Assembly: GCA_038087875.1 (NCBI GenBank)
Contig: CM075990.1
Location: forward strand, 2,606,001 to 2,670,000
Origin: Malacoraja senta
Taxonomy: Eukaryota
DNA length: 64,000 nucleotides
Reading direction: 5' to 3'
Made by a program: the position numbers and the translations under genes. Positions 1,140 to 64,000 of this stretch are shown here, in pieces; the first letter of the stretch is position 1; each line of letters begins with the position of its first letter. The notes beneath the pieces were generated by a model. The model saw nothing but the letters and a program-made list of their open reading frames with translations. It was not told the origin of the DNA and did no database searches.

Positions 1140-2680
1140 CTGAGGAATGGTTGTTGGAATTTAATACTGAAAAATGTGAGGTGTTGCATTTCGGTAGACT
1201 AAAATTGGCAGGACCTACACAGTGAAAGGTAGGGCAGAAGGATTTCAGAGCGCAGGTACAGTACATAGTTCGTTGCAAATTACATCGCTGGTTGACAGAG
1301 TGGTCAAAAAGGCTTTTGGCACATTGGCCTTCATCAGTCAGAGTATTGAGTATAGAAGTTTGGATGTCATGTTGCAGTTGTATGTTGGTGAGGCTGCATC
1401 TAGAGTGTGGTCTTCAATTCATGCACTATGTTATAGGAAAGATGTTGTCAAGTTGGAAAAGTCAAGATGTTGTCAAGTTGTCCGTAGTCGGTGGGGGCGC
1501 TGCGAGCCGGCAGCCCTAGCAGCAGCGTGTTCGTTTTTTCTACTTTTTTTGTTTTTTTAGTGTGTCTTAATGTATGTTTTTAATGTCTCTTGGTGTGTCT
1601 TGTGTGGGGGGTGGTGTGGGGGGGGGGTAAGGGGGAAACCGTTTCAGCCGCCTCCTCCACGGAGAGCTCCAGCTGGCGGTGTCCTGGGCCTGGGATCCCT
1701 TGTTGGGGACCCGGAAGGAGAAGAGCTCCAACTGCCGGATCGCGGCCTACTTCTACCGCGGGCGCAGCGGGGACTTACCATCCGGAGACCCCTTGAGTGG
1801 AGCTTCGACTGCCGGCCCTGCGGTCTGCGGTGCTTCTGGCTGCGGGGACTTTAAATCTTCGACCGCCGGCCTGCGGCCAACACCATCTTGAAGCCGCGGT
1901 CTCCGGTGGGGAGGCACCGATTCAGGACTTACCTGGACTTACCTTGTCTGAACATCTGGACGCCCGCAGCGGCGGCTGCGGAGGGTTAATGTCCCGACCA
2001 CGGGGGAAAATGGAGGAGGACTGGCCAATTTTTGTGCCTTCCACCACAGTGATGAATGCTGTGGTGGATGTTTGTGTTAAATTATTATCGTGTATTGTGT
2101 GTTCTTTTTTCATTGTACCGCTGCTGGCAAATTCATTTCACTTGCACTTTATGTGCAAGTGACGAATAAAACTTGACTTGACTTGAAAAGGTGCAGAGAA
2201 GATTTACGAGGATGTTGCCAGGACTTGAGGGCCTGCGCTACAGGAAGAGATTGAGCAGGCCAGGTTTCTATTCCTTGGAGTGCAGGAGGAAGAGGCGTGA
2301 TCTTAAAGAGGTGTACAAAATCAAGAGAGTAATAGATCGGGTAGACGCACACAGTCTCTTGCCCAGAGTAGGGGAATCAAGAACCAGAGGACATAGGTTC
2401 AAGGTGAAGGGGAAAAGATTTAATAGGAATCTGTGGGCTAACCTTTTCACACAAAGGATGGTGGGTGCATGGAACAAGCTGCCAGAGGAGGTAGTTGAGG
2501 CAGGGACTATTGCAATGTGTAAGAAACATTTAGACAGGTACATGGATAGGACAGGTTTAGAGGGATATGGGCTAAACGCCAATAGGCAGGTGGGACTAGT
2601 GTAGCTGGGACATGTCGGCCGTTGTGGGCAAGTTGGGCAGAAGGGCCTGTTTCCATGCTGTATCACTCTATGACATAATG
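1140..2680 (+). mobile_element. Degraded CR1 (HER1-like) LINE 3' region interrupted by a retroposon at ~1461-2186
   Basis: Translations DRVVKKAFGTLAFISQSIEYRS.. and QRRFTRMLPGLEGL..RTRGHRFKV..FTQRMVGAWNKLP match CR1 ORF2 C-terminus; reading continues across the insert (KDVVKLEK|VQRRFTR). Confidence 0.9.
1481..2186 (+). mobile_element. GC-rich structured non-autonomous retroposon, copy B, (ACTTG)n tail
   Basis: T tract, G run + GGGGGAAAC, GC-rich body, core hairpin 2040-2068, AATAAA plus microsatellite tail; inserted in CR1. Confidence 0.75.
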
Positions 2681-6409: not shown

Positions 6410-6610
6410 GTTATTCCAGAGTAATCCTTGAAGGTAGAGGATCAAAGGGGATGGGGGGGGGGGGGGGGCAGGGGGAGCAAAGGAGACACATCTCAATGCA
6501 ACGTTTCCCAGTCAATATGTATGGAACGGTGCAGCACAAGAACAGGAACAGAGACTGAAAATTGTAACATCCAGGTTCAGGAACAGCTACTTCCCTACAA
6601 CCATCAGGCT

Positions 6611-7108
6611 TAGAGTTGCCAACTGTCCCGTATTGGCTGGGACATGCCGTATTTTGGGCTAAATTGGTTTGTCCCATACGGGACCGCCCTTGCCCTGTAT
6701 TTGACTGCTACTACTCGGGTCGAGGGGACTGTCGGGTCGGAGCGCCGCGTCCGGCCCCGCCTCATCCGTCCCGACGTAGTGCAGCCCATGGAGTGCAGCA
6801 GCAGCGCATCGCCCGTGGCCCCGTCGGTCGGCAGCCCGACCATCCCGTACCGCCGACACCACCACCCCTTCTTCTCACGGCCAATCATCGGTTCATGAGT
6901 TGGATGGGGTGCCGGACTTTACGCGCGATGTCGCACGGGCCAAAACTCCTCAGCTGGCCCGCCGGCTGGGCTTTGTGTGCAGTCCAGCACCCGGGCCAAC
7001 ATCATTCACCCAGCCACAGCCCAGTCTGTCAACGAATTGCCGTCGGGAATTTGTCCCTTATTTTGACCTTTTGTCCCTTATTTGGGAGTGAGAACATTGG
7101 CAACCCTA
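6611..7108 (+). mobile_element. Non-autonomous hAT DNA transposon (Blackjack-like termini), 498 bp
   Basis: TIRs TAGAGTTGCCAA / TTGGCAACCCTA; perfect 8-bp TSD ATCAGGCT at 6603-6610 and 7109-7116; subterminal TGTCCC/GGGAC motifs; splits a Rex1 fragment. Confidence 0.9.
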
Positions 7109-7765
7109 ATCAGGCTATTAAATACTACAACCTCCATTAAGCCCTGAACTACATAGACTATTGTTGTTATTCATACACTATTATTATTATTTTTTGTTTT
7201 TTAATGTGTACGTATATGTATATATATCTATATATATATATATATATATGTATGAGAAGATAGACACAAATAGCTGGAGTAACTTAGCGGGACAGGCAGC
7301 ATCTCTGGAGGAAAAGGATGGGTGATGTTTTGGGTCGGAACCCTTCTTCAGACATTTAATCTGCCTGCACTTACTCCATATCCCTCCATTCCTAGGCATG
7401 TCCATATACCGACCCAAACAACTCTTAAATGCCACTATTCCCCAAGAAACTTCTGTGGTATTAACTTTTCACAATAATGCAGTCAAGAAAATGTCAACAG
7501 GAGGAATTGAAGGGCAATAACAACAGATCATTGCCATGTACGTTATCCAAATGAAGATTGCTGCTGTTAAGTAGGTGAGGAGAGGTGCTGTCTGGCCTTT
7601 TGCCTGCACTTTACTGCAGTACTGGTGCAAGGCAGCACTGGCTACATGCTACTGTTTGAGGGGTGCCAGTCATTGCTTGGCACCATTTAAAGGCAACATG
7701 GCAACGTGTGAGATGATATGGACTTCGAAGAGTCCAGCTTCAGTGCTCCGCTTCCCATCATTGCG

Positions 7766-8515: not shown

Positions 8516-8833
8516 TTCCATAAGAGGCGCTGGTCCATGTACAGGAAGTGTCCAGCATTCTTCACCACACTCTGCCAGCTTACCCTTTCCCTTTCTCATG
8601 CCTATCTATTGTCTGTTCCATTTGCCAAGGCCAGTCAAATGGATGATAACAAATGTAATGTTTTCACCAAAGATAGACACTAAGTGCTGGAGTAACTCAG
8701 CGGGTCAGGCAGCATCTCTGGAGAAAAAGGATGAGTGACGTTTTGGATCCGGACCCTTCTTCAGACTGAAAGTAGGGAATGGAAGGGGGGGGGAGGGGAG
8801 GGGGGCGGTGGTGAAGTGCTGTAGATGAGAAAA

Positions 8834-9865
8834 TAATAATAATAATAATAATAGATTTTATTTAAGGGCGCCTATACAAAGGTCTCAAGGACACCTTACA
8901 AAATTTAACAAAGAAACATATAATCAGAGTAAAATAAGTTATAAAGACATCACCAATACATAAATTAAAGACAGAAGTTCGATCCAAAATAGACAACAAC
9001 AAAATTCAGAAACACAATGTGAAGGGAGAGCAGCGGCAGCCAAACCGCGCCAGCGTCCACTCTCCCTTCCGACCGCCATCTTGGACATAGACTAACATAG
9101 ACACTACACATTACACACAAAATCATCCCCCCGCAATGGTCACCACTATGGGGGAAGGCACAATGTCCAGTCCTCAACCCCAGTTCTCCCCAAAGTCAGG
9201 CCTATTGAGGCCTCCACAGGTGCCTCTACGGAGGCCCGGAGTTCCTGGCCGTTCTCGCCGGGTGCCATTGCCCCGGCGTCGGGAGAGTCCTCACAGCGGC
9301 TGGGACGGCTGGAACGGCCGATTCCCTACCGGAGTCCGTGGCACCTGAAGCCGACAAGGCCGCGCCGATTTGGAGCTCTGAGGCTCCCGATGTTAAAGTC
9401 GGCGCCGCCGCCCGCGGCTGGCCGCTCCGCAGACCCGCAGCCCGGAGGTGTTGAGCTCGGCGGTCACAGCTCACCGGAGCTCCAGCGCGTCGATCCAGCG
9501 CGGCGACCCAGGCAAGGCATCGCCCGCTCCGCTCCACGATAGCGCTCCAGCACTGTGCCGCCACCGAAGCTGAAGGTGCTGGGGAGTCCCCGCCAGGAAA
9601 CGCCGCTCCAGGCCTGCTGGTAGGCCGCGAGGACGGGTCGACGGGGCAGCCCGGAGAAAAAGCTGCCTCACCGACCAGGTAGGGACCTAGAAATAGTTTC
9701 CCCCATTACCCCCCCACAAGAAAAGTCAAATTCCCCAGCAAACATAGACAGACACAGTTAACTAAAAACTAAAGAAAAAAGTGAAATTAACGGACGGCTG
9801 CTGGTTAGCTGGTTAGCAGCCGTTCCCCAAGATGGCTCCTCCTACATCTACCATCCTCCTACCAT
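8834..9865 (-). mobile_element. GC-rich structured non-autonomous retroposon, copy A1 (full length), (TAT)n tail
   Basis: TSD TGAGAAAA at 8826-8833 and 9866-9873; homologous to 38011-38386 and 63543-64000; hairpins at 9636-9676 and 9126-9155. Confidence 0.85.
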
Positions 9866-9880
9866 TGAGAAAAGACCATT

Positions 9881-16554: not shown

Positions 16555-17742
16555 CACAAAAATGCTGGAGAAACTCAGCGGGTGCAGCAGCATCTATGGA
16601 GCGAAGGAAATAGGCAACGTTTCGGGCCAAAACTCTTCTTCAGACTGATAGGGGGTGGGGAGAAGAAAGGAAAAAAGGAAAAAGGCGGAGGAGGAGCCCG
16701 AGGGCTGGGGGAGGGGAGGAGACAACTAGAGGGCTGATGAAGGGGAGGGGACAGCAAGGGCTAGCAGAATTGGGAGAATTCAATGTTCAAGCCCCCAGGA
16801 TGCAGACTGCCCAAGCGGAATATGAGGTGCATTTCCTCCAATTTACGGTGTTGCTCGCTGAGGCCATGGAGGAGACCCAGGACAGAGAGGTCAGATACGG
16901 AATGGGAGGGGGAGTTGAAGTGCTGAGCCACCGGGAGGTCAGGTTGGCCATCGCGGACCGACCGGAGGTGTTCGGCGAAACGATCGCCAAGCCTCCGCTT
17001 GGTCTCACCGATGTAGATCAGCTGGCATCTAGAGCAGCGGATGCAATAGATGAGGTTGGAGGAGATGCAGGTGAACCTCTGTCGCACATGGAATGACTGC
17101 TTGGGTCCTTGAATGGAGACGAGGAGGGAGGTGAAGGGACAAGTGTTGCAAGGGTAAGTACCAGGGGAGGGGGTGGTATGGGAGGGAAGGGAAGAATTGA
17201 CAAGGGAGTTACGGAGGGAGCGGTCTTTGCGGAAGGCAGACATGGGGGGAGATGGGAAGATGTGGCGAGTGGTGGGGTCACGTTGGAGGTGGCGAAACTG
17301 ACGGAGGATCACTTGTTGTATGTGACGGCTGGTGGGGTGAAAGGCGAGGACTAGGGGGACTCTGCCCTTGTTGTGAGTGGGGGGATGGGGAGAGAGAGCA
17401 GTGTTGCGGGGTATGGCAGAGACCCTGGTGCGAGCCTCATCTATGGTGGAGGAGGGGAACCCCCGTTCCCTGAAGAATGAGGACATTTCAGATGCCCTGG
17501 TGTGGAACGCCTCATCCTGGGAGCAGATGCGGCGTAGACGGAGGAATTGGGAGTGGGGGATGGACTCCTTACAGGAAGCAGGGTGGGAAGAAGTTTAGTC
17601 CAGATAGCCATGGGAGTCGGTGAGTTTGTAGTGGATGTCGGTAAGGAGTCTATCACCTTCGATGGAGATAGTGAGGTCAAGGAATGGGAGGGAGGTGTCG
17701 GAAATGGTCCAGGTGTATTTGAGTGCCGGATGGAAGTAGGTT
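16555..17742 (-). mobile_element. 5'-truncated Penelope-like retroelement (RT thumb, Cys linker, GIY-YIG endonuclease, LTR)
   Basis: 14-bp TSD AAGGTTTGTAGGTT at 16541-16554 and 17743-17756 inside a SINE; coding similarity from ~17735 to 16761; hammerhead motif 16616-16643. Confidence 0.95.
16761..17486 (-). pseudogene. Penelope-like GIY-YIG endonuclease domain, open 241-codon C-terminal fragment
   Basis: FTCISSNLIYCIRCSRCQLIYIGETKRRLGDRFAEH..PVAQHFN..EMHLIFRLGSLHPGGLN; upstream RT mostly missing. Confidence 0.9.
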
Positions 17743-18890: not shown

Positions 18891-18918
18891 AGCCCTCTAG
18901 CATTTGATTGATCCACAC

Positions 18919-19429
18919 TCGGGTTTCCAACTTTCTCACTCCCAAATAAGGGACAAAAGGTCAAAATAAGAGACTAATTCCCAACGGCAATTCGTTGACC
19001 GACTTGGCCGTGGCTGGGTGAATGATGAGTTGGCCCGGGTGCTGGATTGCACACAAAGCCCAGCCGGCGGGCCAGCTGAGGAGTTTTGGTCCGCGCGACG
19101 TCACACGCAAAGTCCGGCACCCCATCCAACTCATGAACCGATGATCGGCCATGAGAAGGTGGTGTCGGCGGTAAGCGAAGGTCCGAAGGTCGGACAGCTG
19201 GCCGGGCTGCCGACCGACGGGGCCACTGGCGAGGTGCTGCTGCTGCATTCCATGGGCTGCACTACGTCGGGACGGTGAGGCGGGGCCCGACGCAGTGCCC
19301 CGACCCGACAGTCCCCTCGACCCGAGTAGTAGCAGTCAAATATGGGACAAGGGTGGTCCCGTATGGGACAAACCAATTTAGCCTAATATACGGGATGTCC
19401 CGGCTAATATGGGACAGTTGGCAACCCTA
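18919..19429 (-). mobile_element. Non-autonomous hAT transposon, second copy, inverted relative to 6611-7108
   Basis: Reverse-complement match along its length; TSD ATCCACAC (18911-18918) / ATCCATAC (19430-19437). Confidence 0.9.
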
Positions 19430-19682
19430 ATCCATACCAGCACTATTCACTCCGAATAAGTGATTGTCCACATGTCAAAGTCATAGACCCTGGGGGCCGA
19501 GGTGGACGGGCCACGTTGCGGAAAACAAAGGTGGCCCCGGCATGGGGGGGGGGGGGGGCACTGAGAACAAGAGAGGGGAGGGACAAAGAGGGGACCAACA
19601 ATATTTAAGGGTACCTTTGTAATTTTGTTGGCACCTTGTGGCGACTGTTTTGTGCACTGTGTATGCTGAAACAAAGAATTAA

Positions 19683-26142: not shown

Positions 26143-26425
26143 TCACAATCACAATCACAGTAATACTTTATTAGCCAAGTATGTTTTGCAACATACGAGG
26201 AATTTCATTTGCCAAGTCAGTCGTACAAATAAAAAGCAACGGAACACACAAAATACATTTCAACGTAAACATCCACCACAGTGACTCCTCCACATTCCTC
26301 ACTGTGATGGAAGGCAAAAAAAAGTTCAATCTCTTCCCTTTGTTCTCCCGTGGTCGGGGGCTTCGAGCCCTCTGTTGACGGGATGATCTTGACTCCCGTA
26401 GCCGGTGGCGGGCCTGCTGCCTTTT
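26143..26425 (-). mobile_element. GC-rich structured retroposon, copy F (5'-truncated), (GTGATT)n tail
   Basis: CCCCGACCACGGGAGAAC motif, core hairpin 26272-26311, tail resembling the Rex1 tails at 42620-42697 and 52155-52210. Confidence 0.75.
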
Positions 26426-33879: not shown

Positions 33880-35428
33880 AACGTCCAGCGGGGCCTGTAG
33901 ACTTTAACATCGGAAGCCTCGGTCTCTGGTAAGAAGCGGCCGATTCGGGAACTCCAAGCCGCAGAGTGTGTTCCGATCCATCCAGATGTCAGAGTTTCGA
34001 TCATCCCGGCGAGAGGGCCTGTACATCGGGCCGTCCGTAGTGGCGACTGTGGATGCTTCTAGGCCCCAACCACGGGTGAACAAAGGAGGAAGATTGACTG
34101 AACTTTATTGCCTTCCATCACAATGAGAAATGTCGATTCCACTGTGGTGGATGTTTATGTTAAATTCTATTGTGTATTGTGTTCTTTTTATTCGTATGGC
34201 TGTATGGTAACTCAATAGACAATAGTGGAGGAGTAGGTCATTTGGCCCTTTGACCTAGCACCGGCATTCAATGTGATCATGGCTGATCATCCTCAATCAG
34301 TACCCCGTTCCTGCCTTCTCCCCATGTCCCCTGACTCCGCTATCTTTAAGAGCCCTATCTAGCTCTCTCTTGAAAGTACCCAGAGAACCGGCCTCCACTG
34401 CCCTCTGAGGCAGAGAATTCCACAGACTCACAACTCTCTGTGAGAAAAAGTGTTTCCTCGTCTCCGTTCTAAATGGCTTACCCCTTATTCTTAAACTGTG
34501 AGCCCTGGTTCTGGACTCCCCCAACATCGGGAACATGGTTTCCTGCCTCTAGCGTGTCCAAGCCCTTAACAATCTTATATGTTTCAATAAGATACCATCT
34601 CATCCTTCTAAACTCCAGAGTGTACAAGCCCAGCTGCTCCATTCTCTCAGCATATGACAGTCCTGTCATCCCGGGAATTAACCTTGTAAACCTACGCTGC
34701 ACTCCCTCAATACCAAGAATGTCCTTCCTCAAATTAGGGGTCCAAAACTGCACACAATACTCCAGGTGTGGTCTCACTAGGGCCCTATACAACTGCAGAA
34801 GGACCTCTTTGCTCCTATACTCGACTCCTCTTGTTATAAATCCAACATGCCATTCACTTTCTTCACTGCCTGTTGTACCTGCATGCTTACTTTCATAGAC
34901 TGATGAACAAGGACCCTCAGATCCCATTGTACTTCCCTTTTTCACAACGTGACGCCATTTAGATGGTAATCTGCCTTCCTGTTTTTGATACCAAAGTGGA
35001 TAACCTCACATTTATTCACACTAAACTTCATCTGCCATGCATCTGCCCACTAACCCAACGTGTCCAAGTCACCCTGCATTCTCATAGCATCCTCCTCACA
35101 GTTCACACTGCCATCCAGCTTTGTGTCATCTGCAAATTTGCTAATGTTACTTTGAATCCCTTCATCCAAATCATTGATGTATATTGTAAATAGCTGCGGT
35201 CCCAGCACCGAGCCTTGCGGTACCCCACTAGTCACTGCCTGCCATTCTGAAAGGGACCTGTTGATCCCCACTCTTTGTTTCCTGTCTGCCAACCAATTTT
35301 CTAGCCATGTCAGCACTCTACCCCCAATACCATGTGCCCTAATTTTGCCCACTAATCTCCTATGTGGGACCTTATCAAATTTCACTGTACCAATTGGTGC
35401 GTGACAATAAATGTGAACTTGAACTTGA
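33880..35428 (+). mobile_element. GC-rich structured retroposon, copy E, split by a CR1
   Basis: Core hairpin 34114-34151; tail TTCACTGTACC..GTGACAATAAA..(ACTTGA)n resumes at ~35376 after the CR1. Confidence 0.7.
34215..35380 (-). mobile_element. 5'-truncated CR1 LINE with RT domain
   Basis: FDKVPHRRL..SGVPQGSVLGPQLFTIYINDL..KFADDTKL; same subfamily as 30061-31636. Confidence 0.95.
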
Positions 35429-37490: not shown

Positions 37491-38010
37491 GAAGAACGTA
37501 CAAACTCCACACAGACAGCACCCGAGGGTGGAATCGAACCCGGGTCTCCGGCACCGTGAAGCAGCAACTCTACCACCTGCGCCACTGTGCCGTACAGCAC
37601 AGTGACTGTGTCTTGGGGCCACCATGTCTGTGTCAACCATGATGCCACATTAAACTAATCCCATCTGCCTTAACATGTGATGGTTTTCCTCGAGTCCTTG
37701 CCTTTCACGTGCCCATCTTAAATAATGCTAACATTTCTGCCTCTATCACCACTCCTGGCAGCACAGCCCAGGCACCTGGCACTCTATGTATCCAAAACTC
37801 TGTATAGCAAATCCCCTTTACATTTTCTGTCTCTTACCATAAACCTGTGCCTTTATCTGACATCTCCCCACTAGAACGAGACGAACAATCTAACCTGTCA
37901 GCACATCTTATAATTTTATATACTTCTAAAAAGTATTGCCCAGGCCAACCAACACCTACACTAGTCCCACCTGCCTGACTTGGCCCATATCCCTCTAAAC
38001 CTTTCCTATC

Positions 38011-38386
38011 CTCCGTAGAGGCAACTGTGGAGGCCTCAATAGGCCTGACTTTGGGTGAACTGGGGTTGGGGACTGGACATTGTGCCTTCCCCCACAGTGG
38101 TAATCATTGTGGGGGGATGATTTTTGTGTGTAAATGATATTTTATTTTATGTCCAAGATGGCTGCCGGAAGGAGGGTGGACGCTGGTGCGCTTTATCAGC
38201 CGCTGCTCTCTCTTCCATATTGTGTTTTTGATTTTTGTTTTTGGATTGAATTCTCTCTTTAATTTGTGTACTCGTGATGTCTTTATTATTTATTTCATTC
38301 CGCTTACATGTTTCTACTATTTGTTAAACTTAAAAGGTGTCCTTGAGACTTTTGAAAGGCGCCCATAAATAAAATGTATTATTATT
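38011..38386 (+). mobile_element. GC-rich structured retroposon, copy A2 (5'-truncated)
   Basis: Homologous to 8834-9230; core hairpin 38088-38117; AAATAAAATG(TAT)n tail. Confidence 0.85.
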
Positions 38387-38647
38387 ATCTATGTACCTGT
38401 CCATATGTCTTCATTAAAATTTGATATACTTCTTAATAGGTGCTCCGACAGATTAATCTGGAGTATGGTGTAGCCACATTTGGAGTATTGTGTTCAGTTT
38501 TGGTCTGCCTGCTGTAGTGAAGATGCTGTTAAGCTCTAAAGAATGCAGAGAAGATTTACAAGGATATCGCCAGGATTCGAGGGCCTGAGCTATAGGGAGA
38601 GGTGAGGCAGGTTAGGACTCTATTCCTTGGAGGATGAGAGATGCTTT

Positions 38648-38970: not shown

Positions 38971-39129
38971 TTATAAAAGTGCATAAGGTCATGAGGGGAA
39001 TAGAGTGAGTGAGTGAGAGAAAGTGTGTGTGTGTGTGCATATGGTCAATTGTTCTTCATTATCACATGTACAAACATACAGTGAAACTCTTTTTCTTACA
39101 TGCAGTTCGGTAAAGTATTGCCATACCTA

Positions 39130-39565
39130 AGCACAACCCCTGATTAGCCCAAAGTGCGTAGAAATCGTCCACGGAGGCCGCGTGCATGAGTCGCCAGGTT
39201 TTTGCGTCATTTCCAAAGTCCAGTCCGGTCCGCGCGCCCGGTCTCCTGTAGCGGGTCCTGATCCAGGCGAGCCCCAGGCTGCTGCAGGGCCTCCAGCCGT
39301 CGCCTCCGTCTGGAACGTCCAGCAAACCGGCGTCCCTCTCCTCGCCCGGCCGCCTGCAGCCCTTGTGGCCCGGGGAGGGAGGGGAGCCTCCCGCAGCCCA
39401 CCGTGAGGCCGCAGAAGGAAGGTGATACCCAGGTTCACTCTCCTACTGGCGATTGTTCTTGTGTCCATCGGCACCCTCCGTCCTCCTCTCCGGTTCTCCG
39501 GTGCTCGGGAGACGAGCAGGGGCCGGCTCGGCATTCCTTCCTTCTGGCCACGTGGCTCACCGATC
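39130..39565 (-). mobile_element. Probable degraded Tx1-like LINE C-terminal fragment
   Basis: GC-rich; terminal peptide ..HAASVDDFYALWANQGLC resembles Tx1 ORF2 ends; frameshifted. Confidence 0.45.
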
Positions 39566-42338: not shown

Positions 42339-42776
42339 GAGGTCTAAGGAAATGAAAGGCACCTGTTTAGGCACATTAAAATACAAGATTCCAGCATTTG
42401 CACTCGTTTGAGAAACCGCTGCCTGGACATTTAGTAGAAGGCAAGATCTTCAGTGCTAAGTGGCATTGAATAGCTCATCCCTGTGGAAAAACCATCAGAG
42501 CATCCTACATCACAGTTATTTAATTCACATGTTTAACCGATAATGTTTTATTGTTAATGTTTAATGTTTTATGTGTCATTCCAACTGTCACTGTATGTCA
42601 TGTTGTCACTTGCGGGCAGAGCACCAAGGCAAATTCCTTGTATGTGAATACTTGGCCAATAAAGTTATTCATTCATTCATTCATTCATTCATTCATTTAG
42701 TGAGCAGCGTAGACTGAGGCCTGGGTCTAGGAGGGAGTGTTGAAGATAGGAAGGTTTAGAACAGCCACTGTCCAAT

Positions 42777-43542
42777 AGGGGCGCTGCATTGAAGGCGCCT
42801 CTGCCTACAGCCTGTCCGTTTTTTCTATATTTTTTTAATTTTAGTTTGTCTAAACAGTTTTGGGGATACTTTAGTTTTTCTATGTGGGGGAGGGGGGGAG
42901 GGTAAGGGGGAAACCGTTTCCCAGTCGCTTCCTGGCGAGGACGCGACTATTTCTCCAAGTCGCGTCCTCCCCCCCACCTCGCGGCCTACCACTGGTTCGG
43001 AGCAGTCTTTCCTACCAGAGACCGGGGCCCGGACCAGAGCTTCGGCAGCAGCGGCGCGGCGCTGGATTCACCACGGAGCAGGCGGTGCCTTCCTGGATCG
43101 CCGTATGAGGCTCCGGAGCGTTGGGCGGTGCTGACTCCAACATCGCGTAGTCCCTGGGGCCCTTTGCAGAGGGCCGCCAGCGTTGAATCTCCGCCTGTGG
43201 ACGTCGTGAGCCGCGGAATCCGGTGGGAAGCGGCCGTTTTGGAGGTCCAAGCCGCTGTGGTTGGCCTCCCGTTCGGAGTTCCAACATCCCGGCGAGCGGG
43301 CCTGAGCGGCGGGCTGCCCGTAGCGGCGACTGCAGAGGGCTCCGGAGGCCCCGACCACGGGTGAACATGAAAGGAAGATGACTGACTTTGGTGCCTTCCC
43401 TCACAGTGGGAAACTTTTAATTCTGTTGTGTGGGGATGTTTTATGTTGAACTCTATCGTGTGTTGTATTCTTTATTTTTATTGTATTGCTGTATGGTGAT
43501 CAACTGGCACGTGACAAATAAATGTATCTTGTATCTTGTGTC
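42777..43542 (+). mobile_element. GC-rich structured retroposon, copy C (full length), (TATCTTG)n tail
   Basis: Head CCTACAGCCTGTCCGT, T tract, GGGGGAAAC, perfect 12-bp hairpin 42937-42969, core 43397-43436. Confidence 0.8.
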
Positions 43543-43664
43543 TGGTGAGATTGGACCAAGGAGACACAAGGTTCAATGGCTCTTTTATTTTCGCATGTAC
43601 AAACGCACAATGAAATCATTTTCTTACATTCATACCTGTAGAGTGTTGCCATACCCAAGCACAT

Positions 43665-44032: not shown

Positions 44033-44496
44033 TCTTGATTAGCAAGTGTACAGAAATAGTCCACTGAGCCCGCTTGCAAGAGGAGCCGTGTTTTGGCACC
44101 ATTTCAAATCTAGTCCGCACTAATCAGGAAGTGCAAATGCTGGAATCTTGAGCCAAACACAAATTGCTGGAAGAATTCAGCGGGTCAGGCAGCATCTGTG
44201 GTGGGAATGGACAGGCAATATTTCCAGTCGGGACAATCCCCAATTGGCAAAGTGTACAGTTATAGTCCGCCAAGCCCGCTACAAGAGCGCCGTGTTTTGG
44301 CGCCATTTTCATAGTCGAGTCTGCGCTCTAGGTTTGAACAGTGGCTCCGATCCAGGGGCCTCCAGCCATCGCCTTCCTTGGACATGTGGATCGACCAGCG
44401 AACTGACGTCCCTCTACTCTCCTCTCCTCTCCTCGCCCGTCCACCATTGTGCCCCAGGGGCGCCTCCTGCAGCCGACCTCGAGGGCACAGAGTGTC

Positions 44497-52154: not shown

Positions 52155-52634
52155 TTGAATGAATAAGTTTATTGGCCAAGTATGTACACATACAAGGAAT
52201 TTGCCTTGGTGCTCCGCTCGCAAGTAACAACACGACATACAGTAAACAATTAAGAATAAAACATAAAACATTAAACATTAAGAATAAAACATTATAGTTT
52301 AAACATGTGAATGAAATAAAATACCAGGGCAAAAGGAGGCTACAGACTTTTGGTTATTCAGTAGAGCTACTGCTCGTGGAAAAAAGCTGTTTTTATGTCT
52401 GGCTGTGGCGGGTTTGACAGTCTGGAGTCGCCTTCCGGTGGGAAGTGATTCAAAGAGTTTGTGGCCACGGTGAGAGGGGTCAGAGATGATCTTACGCGCT
52501 CGCTTCCTGGCCCTTGCAGTGTATAGTTCGTCAATAGTGGGAAGGTTGCAGCCAACAACCTTCTCAGCTGATCGAACGATTCGCTGCAGCCCTCCGGATG
52601 TCGTGCTTGGAGGCTGAGCCAAACCAGACCATAA
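52155..52634 (-). mobile_element. Rex1/Babar LINE 3' end, (TTCA)n-tail subfamily
   Basis: LQRIVRSAEKVVGCNLP..SDPSHRGHKLFESLPTGRR..RHKNSFFPRAV. Confidence 0.9.
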
Positions 52635-54069
52635 TGGTTTGGCTCAGCCTCCCAGTAGATACAGCCTCCCAGTAGATACAAACATCCAGTAGATACAAAG
52701 AACTGCTGATGCTGGTTTACAAAGAAGAAGGGTCCCGACCCACAGCGTCACCTATCCATGTTCTCCAGGGATGCTGCCTGACCCGCTGAGTTACTCCATC
52801 ACTTTGTATCTATCTTTGGTATAAACCAACATCTGCAGTTACTTGTTTCTAAAGCTTAATGTAGTGTCCAGTGTTGATCACAGTGAACAAGTCTTAATGT
52901 TGGAGATCGATGGTGTTACGTTGAGGCATCAGAACCTTTCTGTTGGCCATGGAGTTGTAATCTAACAGTGGCCACTATTGTTAGTGGGGGAAGATTGAAG
53001 ATTATTATCAGATTGTTCAGTGGAGTGAAGAAGGTTCATCCAGGCCAGAAAATAAAGAGATGTCAATAGAGGTACTGTTCTTTTAAAATGGTTTCATTTG
53101 CAAACTGAAGGTGAACCGTTTTACTGGAGTAACTCAGCGGGTCAGGCAGCATCCCTGGAGAGCATGGATAGGTGACGTGGCGGGTCGGGACCCTTCTTCT
53201 TTGTAAACCAGCATCTGCAGTTCCTTATATCTACTGGGAGAGATTTACTGTGGAGGAAAGAACTGCAGGTGCTGGTTTTGGACACAAAAGCTGGAGTAAC
53301 TCAGCGGGTCAGACAGCATCTCTGAAGAAAAGGAAGATCTGACATATTGGTAAATTGCAGTATGTATGTATTGATCCAGGAGGACAGTTTTGTTTAGATT
53401 AGCTTGGTTCAGTTTAGTTTAGTTTTGTTTAATTTCATTTAATTTTGTTTCATTTCATTTAGTTTGGAGATTTACTTTAGTTTAATTTAGTTTAGTTTAG
53501 TTCAGTTTAGTTTCATTTTGTTTAGAGATTTAAACTTTGCTTTAGACTTTGGAGATGGAAACATCCCTTCGGCCCACTGAGACCGTGCCGACCAGTGATC
53601 ACCCTGTATGCTTGTACTATTCTACACGCTAGGAACAATTTACAATTTACAGAAGCCAATTAACCTACAAACCTGCAAATCCTCCATTAACAATGAGTGT
53701 GGAAAGAAACTGGAGCACCCGGAGAAAACCACCACTGTCACAGGGAGAAGGTACAAACTCCGTATAGACAGGCCCCATAGTCAGTATCGAACCCGGGTCT
53801 CTGGCACTGTCAGTCAGCAATTATAACTACTCCACTCTGCTACCCTAATACAGCATGGAAATGGGCCCTTCAGCCCATCCAGTCCACACTGACCATTTAT
53901 CACCCATTCACTAAGGGTATTTTTATGGAGGCCCAATCAACCTACAAAGTCGCACATCTTTGGGATGTGGGAGGTTCCGCGACCTTATGTCTACCATGCA
54001 TTAAGTTCATCTGCACTCAAATTGTTGGTTTGTCTCACATTCTGGAACACTGTGCATAGTGTTAATATG

Positions 54070-57193: not shown

Positions 57194-57290
57194 AGTCAAT
57201 TCTACATGGAAAGATATTTATTTCTACAGAGATCTCTGCACGACCTAGAATTTTCACCCAGATAGTTGTGAATGTGTGGAAACTTCACCC

Positions 57291-58153
57291 AGTGCGACGG
57301 CGCGGATTACTGCCGCGGCCCCTACAGCCTGTCTGTCTTTTTTTAATTTTTGTCTAGTTAAATGTAGTTGTTTGTGTTTTTTTAATACTGATTTTAACTG
57401 TGTATATGTGGGGGCGGGGGGGGGAGGGGGAAACTTTAAAAAATCTCTTCCCTGCACGGGAGACCCGACCTTTTCCCTGTCGGGTCTCCGTTGTCGTTGG
57501 GGCCTAGCTCCGTGGAGCGGCCTCCGACCGGGACGACCTGGGGGCTCCAGTCGCGGAGCCTGTGGAGCTGCGGACTTACCATCGTGGGGCTGGCCGGCCT
57601 CGGAGCGTGGGGAGCGGTGGTGGCTCGCTGCTGCGGCCCGACTCCGGAGCTCCAGCTGCAGACCTGTGGACTATGATATCGGGAGCTCGCGGGTCCGGGT
57701 GAGAGACTGCTTTCCGGAGCTCCCGCAACGCAACTTCTCCCGCCCGTGTCGCGGGGTTGGAACGACCCGAAGCGGGGCCGTAAATCGCCCGGCGCGGCTT
57801 TAATGGCCGCAGGACATTCCAGCGCCTGCCGGGGGCTCCAACTTTGTGACTTTTGGGCCGGAGCGAGGCCGTACACCGGCAGGCGCGGCCTTGAATGGCC
57901 GTGGGACTTAACATTGCCCGCCTGGGGCTTCAACATCGGGAGAAAAATGGTGCAGGGGAGAGAAAAGACTTTGCCTTCCATCACAGTGAGGAGGAGATTC
58001 ACTGTGATGGATGTTTTTCTGTAAATTGAATTGTTTGTGTGTCTTGTAGGAATTGTTTTGTTTGTATGGCTGTGGAAACGGAGTTTCGTTTGAGCCTCTT
58101 TGAGGTACAAATGACAAGAAATAAAATCTAATCTAATCTAATCTAATCTAATC
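57291..58153 (+). mobile_element. GC-rich structured retroposon, copy D (full length), (ATCTA)n tail
   Basis: Head CCTACAGCCTGTCTGT, T tract, GGGGGAAAC, perfect 11-bp hairpin 57459-57489, perfect 13-bp core hairpin 57977-58011. Confidence 0.8.
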
Positions 58154-58539
58154 AGAGAGTGGTGAATCTGTGGAATTCTCTGCCACAGAAGGCAGTGGAG
58201 GCCAATTCACTGAATGTATTCAAGAAGGATTTGGATGTGGCTCTTAGGGCTAACGGAATCAAGGGATAAGGGGGGAAAGCAGGAATGGGGTACTGATTTT
58301 GGATGATCAGCCATGATCATATTGAATGGCGGTGTTGGCTTGAAGGGCTGAATGGCCTACTCCTGCACCTATTTTCTATGTCTCTATTTTTGTAACACAC
58401 TGAAGGTTTTATGATTCATGGGTGGAAAGTAATGTAATTTATTGCCTCCAGACACTGGGCCCGGATAAGACATCGGGTTGTGACTTGAAACCTTGAATGC
58501 TTTTTTCATCACCTGCAATGCACTGGGAGAATTTGTAAT

Positions 58540-63542: not shown

Positions 63543-64000
63543 TAGGAGGAGGAGCCATCTTGGGGGAACGGCTGCTAACCAGCAGCTGTCCGTTAAATTC
63601 ACTTTTTTTTTTAGTTTTTAGTGAATTCTGTCTATGTTTGCTGGGGAATTTGACTTTTCATGTGGGGGGGTAATGGGGGAAACTATTTTCTAGGTCCCTA
63701 CCTGGTCGGTGAGGCAGCTTTTTCTCCGGGCTGTCCCGTCGGCCCGTCCTTGCGGCCTACCAGCGGGCCTGGAGCGGCGTTCCCTGGCGGGGACCGCCCA
63801 GCACCTTCAGCTTCGGTGGCGGCACAGCGCTGGAGCGCTATCGCGGAGTGGAGCGGGCGATGCATTGCCTGGGTCGCCGCGCTGGATCGACGCGCTGGAG
63901 CTCCAGTGAGCTGTGACCGGCGAGTTCAACACCTCCGGGCTGCGGGACTGCGGAGCGGCCAGCCGCGGGCGGCGGCACCGACTCTAACATCGGGAGCCTC
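63543..64000 (+). mobile_element. GC-rich structured retroposon, copy A3 (5' half, cut by window end)
   Basis: Close reverse-complement match to 9385-9845. Confidence 0.85.

Follow-up and report, generated by a model that had tools for sequence, protein, structure and literature searches.

A core hairpin is the most conserved module of protein-free repeats with several LINE-like tails in the skate Malacoraja senta

Within a family of protein-free interspersed repeats, which carry several LINE-like tails, a short hairpin is better conserved than any other module. Within the window, i.e. the whole 64,000-nucleotide stretch of Malacoraja senta DNA analysed here, which is rich in interspersed repeats, the hairpin is present in 7/7 copies of the family, and three tail types occur among the six copies that have kept a tail. 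The covariation of its stem is real but thin: the independent events are few and one of them lies in a C/G run. We give a probability of about 50% to the reading that the hairpin is a selected RNA stem which helps the transcript to be copied, independently of which LINE supplies the enzyme.

The core hairpin and the elements that carry it

The focal core hairpin lies on the plus strand at 57972-58013. Its arms (57977-57989 and 57999-58011) form 13 Watson-Crick pairs around a 9-nt loop, and its base is bordered by unpaired TGCCT (57972-57976) and TG (58012-58013). The search pattern TGCCTTCC-gap-GGATG has seven matches in the 64 kb, against a mean of 0.06 and a maximum of one in 100 dinucleotide shuffles. 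The original prediction had placed seven hairpins in the window, each between TGCCT and TG and with loops of 3-14 nt; all seven are present at the positions and on the strands it gave, with loops of those lengths, the constancy of TGCCT and TG in 7/7 hairpins being in part built into the search pattern. The covariance model which it proposed was built from the seven hairpins and run on the window, where the training copies scored 62-69 bits, their reverse strands 13-22 bits and the best unrelated match 14. No eighth core hairpin was found in the window by a profile HMM, by fuzzy motif scans or by the covariance model with its filters off. Folded alone, the hairpins have z-scores of -2.4 to -5.4, and the sense strand folds better than the antisense in 6/7. 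For the whole focal element the antisense z-score (-8.7) is stronger than the sense one (-4.3; 20 shuffles each); folding of the whole element gives no indication of the strand.

The focal element extends over some 860 nt (57293-58153, plus strand; 5' end approximate) and has a G+C content of 0.56. Its CpG observed/expected ratio is 0.91, and that of the four full-length copies (0.70-1.02 kb) ranges from 0.80 to 0.91, versus 0.55 for the window. It is bounded by a likely target-site duplication, with an imperfect left copy at 57259-57281 and a right copy at 58153-58175, the latter at the start of a fragment which we take to be CR1-like; the duplication measures 18 nt with two mismatches by script and 23 nt with three by eye. 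From 5' to 3' the element consists of a shared head (57313-57434; a short GC stretch followed by a T-rich tract and then by a G-run ending GGGGGAAAC), a GC-rich body with an internal tandem duplication (57767-57934; 57767-57842 versus 57858-57934, 77%), the core hairpin, a UG-rich spacer (58014-58085; G+T 0.80 in the first 60 nt) and a tail (58086-58153) with a predicted terminal stem-loop (58086-58114), AATAAA (58120-58125) and a 5-nt microsatellite. This order of T-rich/G-run head, GC-rich body, hairpin, UG-rich spacer and tail characterizes the family (0.7-1.0 kb), with spacer G+T values of 0.68-0.80 across copies. All GGGGGAAAC-ending motifs in the window (5/5) belong to the hairpin family.

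The other full-length copies, identified below by a coordinate of their core hairpins, are those at 1481-2185 (plus strand; with its core hairpin at 2035-2070, its upstream hairpin at 1964-1981 and, in the type A tail, a terminal stem of 10 bp at 2138-2162), 8833-9842 (minus; with its core hairpin at 9124-9160 and its upstream hairpin at 9214-9231, and a second GC unit preceding the type C tail) and 42772-43538 (plus; head hairpin 42937-42969, upstream hairpin 43318-43335, a looser core hairpin at 43392-43438 and a shortened type A tail). Three copies are truncated: 26143-26416 (minus; at the 5' end; core hairpin 26270-26316, type B tail), 33890-34214 (plus; at both ends; core hairpin 34109-34153, upstream hairpin 34035-34052) and 38010-38388 (plus; at the 5' end; a member of the 9124 subfamily with core hairpin 38083-38119, upstream hairpin 38013-38030 and type C tail). 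An eighth member (63545-64000, plus), 92% alike to the 9124 copy, is represented by its head and body, the window ending before the hairpin position. Flanking duplications were seen for the focal copy (18-23 nt) and the 9124 copy (an 8-nt repeat on both flanks), and by script for none of the other five. Such duplications, 5' truncation and microsatellite ends are the marks of LINE-type retrotransposition, to which they point here.

At the 5' junctions of three full-length copies (1440-1480, 57259-57292 and 9843-9866) extra stretches repeat nearby target sequence, directly in two cases and partly inverted in one, as from template jumps ending the insertion. The motif GACTTACC is located at 1772, 1926, 1936 and 57573, so that 4/6 of its occurrences in the window fall inside hairpin elements; read antisense, it presumably corresponds to the 5' splice-site consensus.

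Pairing, covariation and wobble in the stems

In the 7-row alignment of the 13-pair stem 95.5% of 88 cells are paired, and slid registers pair only 36-60%. The arms have pairwise identities of 0.82 and 0.76, the loop one of 0.52, and the flanks have 0.37 and 0.55. Apart from one close pair, the flanks of diverged subfamilies are 34-81% alike; in the upstream columns the focal copy is 34-42% alike to the other six, and the stem is nevertheless kept. This stem is also what RNAalifold predicts, the covariation term contributing just -0.53 kcal/mol.

Both sides have changed at 3/13 pairs, namely the fourth (A-U to C-G), the fifth (U-A, U-G or C-G) and the loop-closing pair (A-U, G-U or G-C). The CC:GG arms carry one extra G on the 3' side, and the C and G runs are of unequal length in 3/7 copies, so the CC:GG register is ambiguous and slippage of the runs is possible. 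The original claim that AT:AT, AC:GT and CC:GG change in concert holds, with this qualification for the CC:GG state. The covariation score was reached by 6/500 shuffles and the paired fraction by 8/500, whereas the number of double-change pairs was reached by 173/500 and that of further pair types by 317/500; among related sequences, values above those of such shuffles can arise in the absence of structure. Independent double changes number only about 3-5 in the seven copies, one of them inside the C/G run. Copies 38083 and 9124 are 96% alike just upstream of the hairpin and their hairpins therefore count as one event. Copy 43392 is nearest to 34109 on both flanks (0.74 and 0.81) but has C-G at the fourth pair, where 34109 has A-U; since C-G is the state of the distant 9124 and 38083 copies, this change either arose twice or recombined.

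At the second variable pair no state is commoner than U-G (AT:GT). Distinct G-U states outnumber A-C states by 6:3 in the core stem (p=0.25), by 10:5 when the upstream stem is added (p=0.15) and by 11:6 with the data from sequencing runs (p=0.17); a hand count of those common to at least two copies or frequent in the runs gives about 7:2 (p 0.09). The sense strand of the region is in any case rich in G+T. Most of the non-Watson-Crick pairs that copies share are G-U, in agreement with the claim that several mismatches are G-U compatible on the sense strand. Equal frequencies of A-C and G-U mismatches had been named as a sign of DNA-level palindrome correction; the ratio leans towards selection on RNA (10:5) at a level which is not significant (p=0.15). 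For the functional RNA stem itself, the pairing kept between flanks only 34-81% alike speaks in favour, and the G-U excess, with p=0.25 and 0.15, adds no significant support.

Two further hairpins occur in the family. One, about 70 nt upstream of the core hairpin, is present in 5/7 copies (it is missing from the focal copy and 26316) and has a G-U majority at two adjacent pairs (3/5 and 4/5), which fits only the sense strand since the other would give A-C; its covariation is not above that of shuffles (290/500). The other, the head hairpin, is located at 57459-57489 (plus strand) in the focal element, with 11 Watson-Crick pairs and a pyrimidine-rich loop. Compared with its counterpart at 42937-42969 it has three double changes in 11 pairs, all Watson-Crick (chance 1/165 for the positions alone; pairs counted by hand in 2/4 copies), and the 2035 copy is without the head stem. 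A small hairpin between TGCCT and a purine-rich stretch upstream was rejected as no better than shuffles in 7/7 copies. A GAACA-like motif upstream might have paired with the TGTT that follows the stem, but this was rejected too, since by eye the pairing fails in the 9124/38083 subfamily.

Of 23 public sequencing runs listed, none of them an RNA run, eight were compared, representing six organisms and seven studies; one may be the source of the window. In four runs from three organisms the summed depth of the contigs is highest over the hairpin, exceeding that of upstream bins 3-10 times and that of downstream bins 4-37 times; this depth is a relative profile of what aligns and not a copy number. 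The retroposon family looks abundant in several of the organisms sampled. All indels listed inside the hairpin (6/6) fall in the loop or at its edge. Among the 40 of 58 variant rows listed are three stem substitutions: one at 58001 producing U-G (12%, 9%, 3% and 1% of depth in four runs), one at 58011 also producing U-G (4.6% in one run), and one at 58006 producing C-A (5% in one run), whose partner change may lie outside the list. Four further runs had no substitutions listed, which was ascribed to the short stretch covered, and they were left unused; a sister run has the 12% variant.

These wobble pairs bear on a rather unlikely alternative, that template switching or fold-back keeps the arms matched with no selection on RNA structure. 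Such palindrome correction should erase wobble, yet G-U states are common to copies and subfamilies and reach the 12% of depth just mentioned. Template switching is known to create and correct RNA hairpin stems, although the accessible part of the same source calls its role in maintaining short stems less clear (PMC8794818). In favour of correction, the step from A-U to C-G takes two transversions without a stable intermediate, and the double changes of the head hairpin are exclusively Watson-Crick, as template switching would produce. That such palindromes arise here is indicated by the 5' junction of a LINE fragment, which has a perfect fold-back of 15 bp (52609-52652); the lack of significance of the G-U excess also fits. 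Correction leaves unexplained why the stem and its unpaired flanks last while the neighbouring sequence turns over.

The search pattern was also matched in viral collections (0 and 1 locus), metagenome (4) and prokaryote genomes (9). All 14 matches were discarded as chance look-alikes, having no family flanks. Thirteen of them could be parsed (L009 lies outside the regular expression), yielding 10 distinct loci. In one of these 10, from the prokaryote and viral collections, both variable positions are paired, compared with 4/4 of the window copies which conform to that strict register. By chance, a hairpin between two bacterial ORFs imitates the CC:GG form (L002:1501-1538, L003:1501-1538 and L004:735-772); its flanks are unlike those of the family.

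The rarity of such pairing among chance matches counts against a purely historical explanation, which we find improbable: that an old palindrome was recently spread among the subfamilies by recombination, the concerted changes being slippage plus chance. It would account for the small number of events, for the unequal C/G runs in 3/7 copies and for a count of double-change pairs not above that of shuffles (173/500), it suits the modular make-up of the family, in which tandem duplications and tail swaps occur, and the invariance of TGCCT and TG owes something to how the pattern was constructed. A recent sweep would not, however, leave loops diverged (0.52, 3-14 nt) while arms stay paired, and two other stems behave alike.

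Heads, tails and partner LINEs

Five heads can be aligned (GC stretch, T-rich tract, G-run), and within the window they match only one another. ARAGORN found no tRNA genes in the window, a weak test since it also missed the ordinary SINEs present there. A pair of Pol III A and B boxes is found in 0/5 heads, where there are one weak B-like and two weak A-like matches; the B box is absent from 4/5 heads, and a control SINE head has one. Runs of at least four T occur 37-65 nt into all five heads. The absence of tRNA and of a box pair, together with these early T-runs, argues against an ordinary SINE head. A motif which we take to be YY1-like is located at 9075-9083, 9828-9836, 38154-38162 and 63554-63562. 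It stands at the beginning of the type C subfamily in reverse orientation and at that of the subfamily's second GC unit in forward orientation, and is a possible Pol II promoter element.

There were no Pfam matches for the 4/4 element ORFs scanned, including the longest sense ORF of the focal element. Protein searches with spurious translations of the elements returned only a minisatellite ORF and one antisense translation of another copy, which ends before the hairpin. Rfam gave no match at gathering score in the window, the best E values on the four full-length copies being 0.8-2.6. Descriptors of the hammerhead, the IRE and the ENE were also applied. IRE identity was rejected since the IRE-like hexamers pair at just 0-3/5 upper-stem positions, and an ENE-type U-rich internal loop since three copies have a short 5' U-tract or none. 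No hammerhead core exists in 7/7 copies, and a hammerhead or retrozyme identity was likewise rejected (cf. the accessible text of bioRxiv 10.64898/2026.07.22.740005).

The six tails fall into three types, all of which have a predicted terminal stem-loop followed by AATAAA and a short repeat: type A (2035, 43392 and 57972), type B (26316) and type C (9124 and 38083). Types A and B resemble the ends of LINE fragments in the window. The type B tail of 26316 is 79% alike to the LINE end at 52168-52202 over 39 nt (the one BLAST match among four tails queried); the type A tails of the focal and 2035 copies are like LINE ends of the window at the level of motif and fold only, and the focal tail has no BLAST match to any LINE in the window. 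The type C tail, which follows the second GC unit and is presumably L2-like, has no partner LINE in the window. We take the LINE ending at 52202 to be a Rex1 element; a 56% relative of its ORF carries a reverse transcriptase domain and PF09004. According to the accessible part of PMC13343379, Rex1 lacks ORF1 and rays rank among the highest in Rex1 coverage; that of PMC6274825 gives general Rex1 features only.

Other elements lie nearby. The perfect 15-bp inverted repeat (52609-52652) is located where a Rex1-like LINE fragment of the minus strand is truncated at its 5' end; it adjoins short tandem repeats and has the look of a fold-back formed during insertion. A second family of GC-rich elements without ORFs (39060-39520 and 44300-44490 (-)) includes a copy, that at 39060-39520, with a LINE-like tail and without the core hairpin; a related tail fragment occurs at 43570-43660. 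A GC-rich element of about 500 bp with terminal inverted repeats is present in two copies (6610-7112 and 18918-19430) and is likely a non-autonomous DNA transposon. An ORF fragment at 16761-17594 (minus strand) with a weak GIY-YIG match (E 3e-4, below cut-off) is likely a Penelope-like element.

As the original prediction held, the hairpin lies upstream of LINE-like tails in the six tail-keeping copies, 78-261 nt before AATAAA. The distance is 78-106 nt in four type A and B copies and 248-261 nt in type C; the hairpin therefore travels with the body rather than with the tail. The hairpin was seen in 0/5 C-terminal LINE fragments of the window that run into such tails. From its distance to AATAAA and this absence we conclude that it is not the terminal stem recognized by the reverse transcriptase. 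By analogy with UnaL2 (PMC1636434, in its accessible part) each tail's own terminal stem-loop would be the better candidate for that role. Among the three roles initially offered (protein binding, stability and recruitment of reverse transcriptase) the last is now the weakest.

We also doubt that the hairpin is a second recruitment element for the reverse transcriptase, taken from the UTR of an autonomous LINE outside the window. The suggestion draws on the 78-106 nt spacing in type A and B copies, and on accessible accounts that LINE tail stem-loops are needed for mobilisation (PMC1636434), that single-ORF LINE clades give rise to bipartite derivatives (PMC5786205) and that Rex1, abundant in rays, is of the kind without ORF1 (PMC13343379). 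It has to reckon with 0/5 LINE ends of the window carrying the hairpin, with a hairpin common to three unlike tails and placed 248-261 nt from the end in type C, and with a loop which is not conserved (0.52, 3-14 nt), though the UnaL2 protein is thought to read the loop.

A proposed role and the relation to known retroposons

In the reading of the hairpin as a selected RNA stem, the element would be transcribed from its CpG-rich head, likely by Pol II given the lack of Pol III boxes and the T-runs near its start. A Rex1-like or L2-like reverse transcriptase would recognize the terminal stem of the tail and copy the RNA by target-primed reverse transcription. The free loop, changeable stem letters and constant unpaired base suggest that a host protein recognizes the base of the stem, or that the stem is a folding barrier. 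The core stem would be read at its base, where UGCCU and UG are unpaired, with the loop left free; it may dock a host RNA-binding protein and/or may insulate the GC-rich body from the UG-rich spacer and tail so that the tail stays accessible; this is the weakest of the proposed steps. Template switches in the spacer, on the 3' side of the stem, could swap the tails. We advance tentatively, as a possibility short of even odds, the wider proposal that these are undescribed skate and ray retroposons, transcribed by Pol II, without a tRNA head, with stems conserved in shape and exploiting two LINE clades at once, in which the hairpin is a LINE-independent dock for a host protein, much as the SRP9/14-binding fold serves Alu RNA.

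No published description of the family was found in a search of the accessible literature; Repbase and Dfam, outside that search, may hold it. A close comparison is with the conserved-domain SINEs (CORE, V, Deu, Meta and UCON3, and in cartilaginous fish HE1, SacSINE1 and the CmiSINEs), which, as far as described in the accessible parts of PMC5499810, PMC7245038 and PMC3747384, are likewise protein-free and likewise have one internal module with different tails, LINE-derived in their case and LINE-like here; tail exchange, known from them, is likely in the skate family too. The skate family differs in having neither tRNA head nor Pol III boxes, in its early T-runs, and in being 0.7-1.0 kb long and CpG-rich. 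Its module is a stem of 40-50 nt with a free loop, whereas theirs is a sequence domain of 65-300 nt. As no Pol III head was found, we have not filed the family with them.

Bipartite non-autonomous LINEs without ORFs (RIME, NARTc, Bov-A and WALLSI3) are described, in the accessible part of PMC5786205, only from RTE, Ingi, Vingi and R2. They resemble the skate elements in lacking an ORF and a small-RNA head and in having a LINE-like 3' end, likely Pol II transcription and 5'-truncated copies, but the skate tails look presumably Rex1-like and L2-like and one head goes with several tails. The head of a bipartite LINE comes from the same LINE as its tail, and the skate heads match only each other within the window. 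Five short motifs of the family had no matches in the supplement of PMC5786205. The hairpin resembles the 3' stem-loop of eel UnaL2/UnaSINE (PMC1636434, accessible part) in being a conserved RNA stem close to the 3' end of an RNA mobilised by a LINE; unlike it, the skate hairpin is not terminal, is absent from the LINE ends of the window and has a loop which is not conserved.

The finding is of moderate weight, as the hairpin is a cis-element of a transposon. It touches a long-standing question, why the middle domains of SINE superfamilies stay conserved; in its accessible part PMC5786205 calls the origin of these domains enigmatic. A short and simple stem that survives tail exchange can be broken and restored in a retrotransposition assay. 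The skate family would extend the ORF-less non-autonomous LINE derivatives to partners of the Rex1 and L2 type and, if the hairpin acts regardless of the partner LINE, it would point to a host factor needed by non-autonomous elements.
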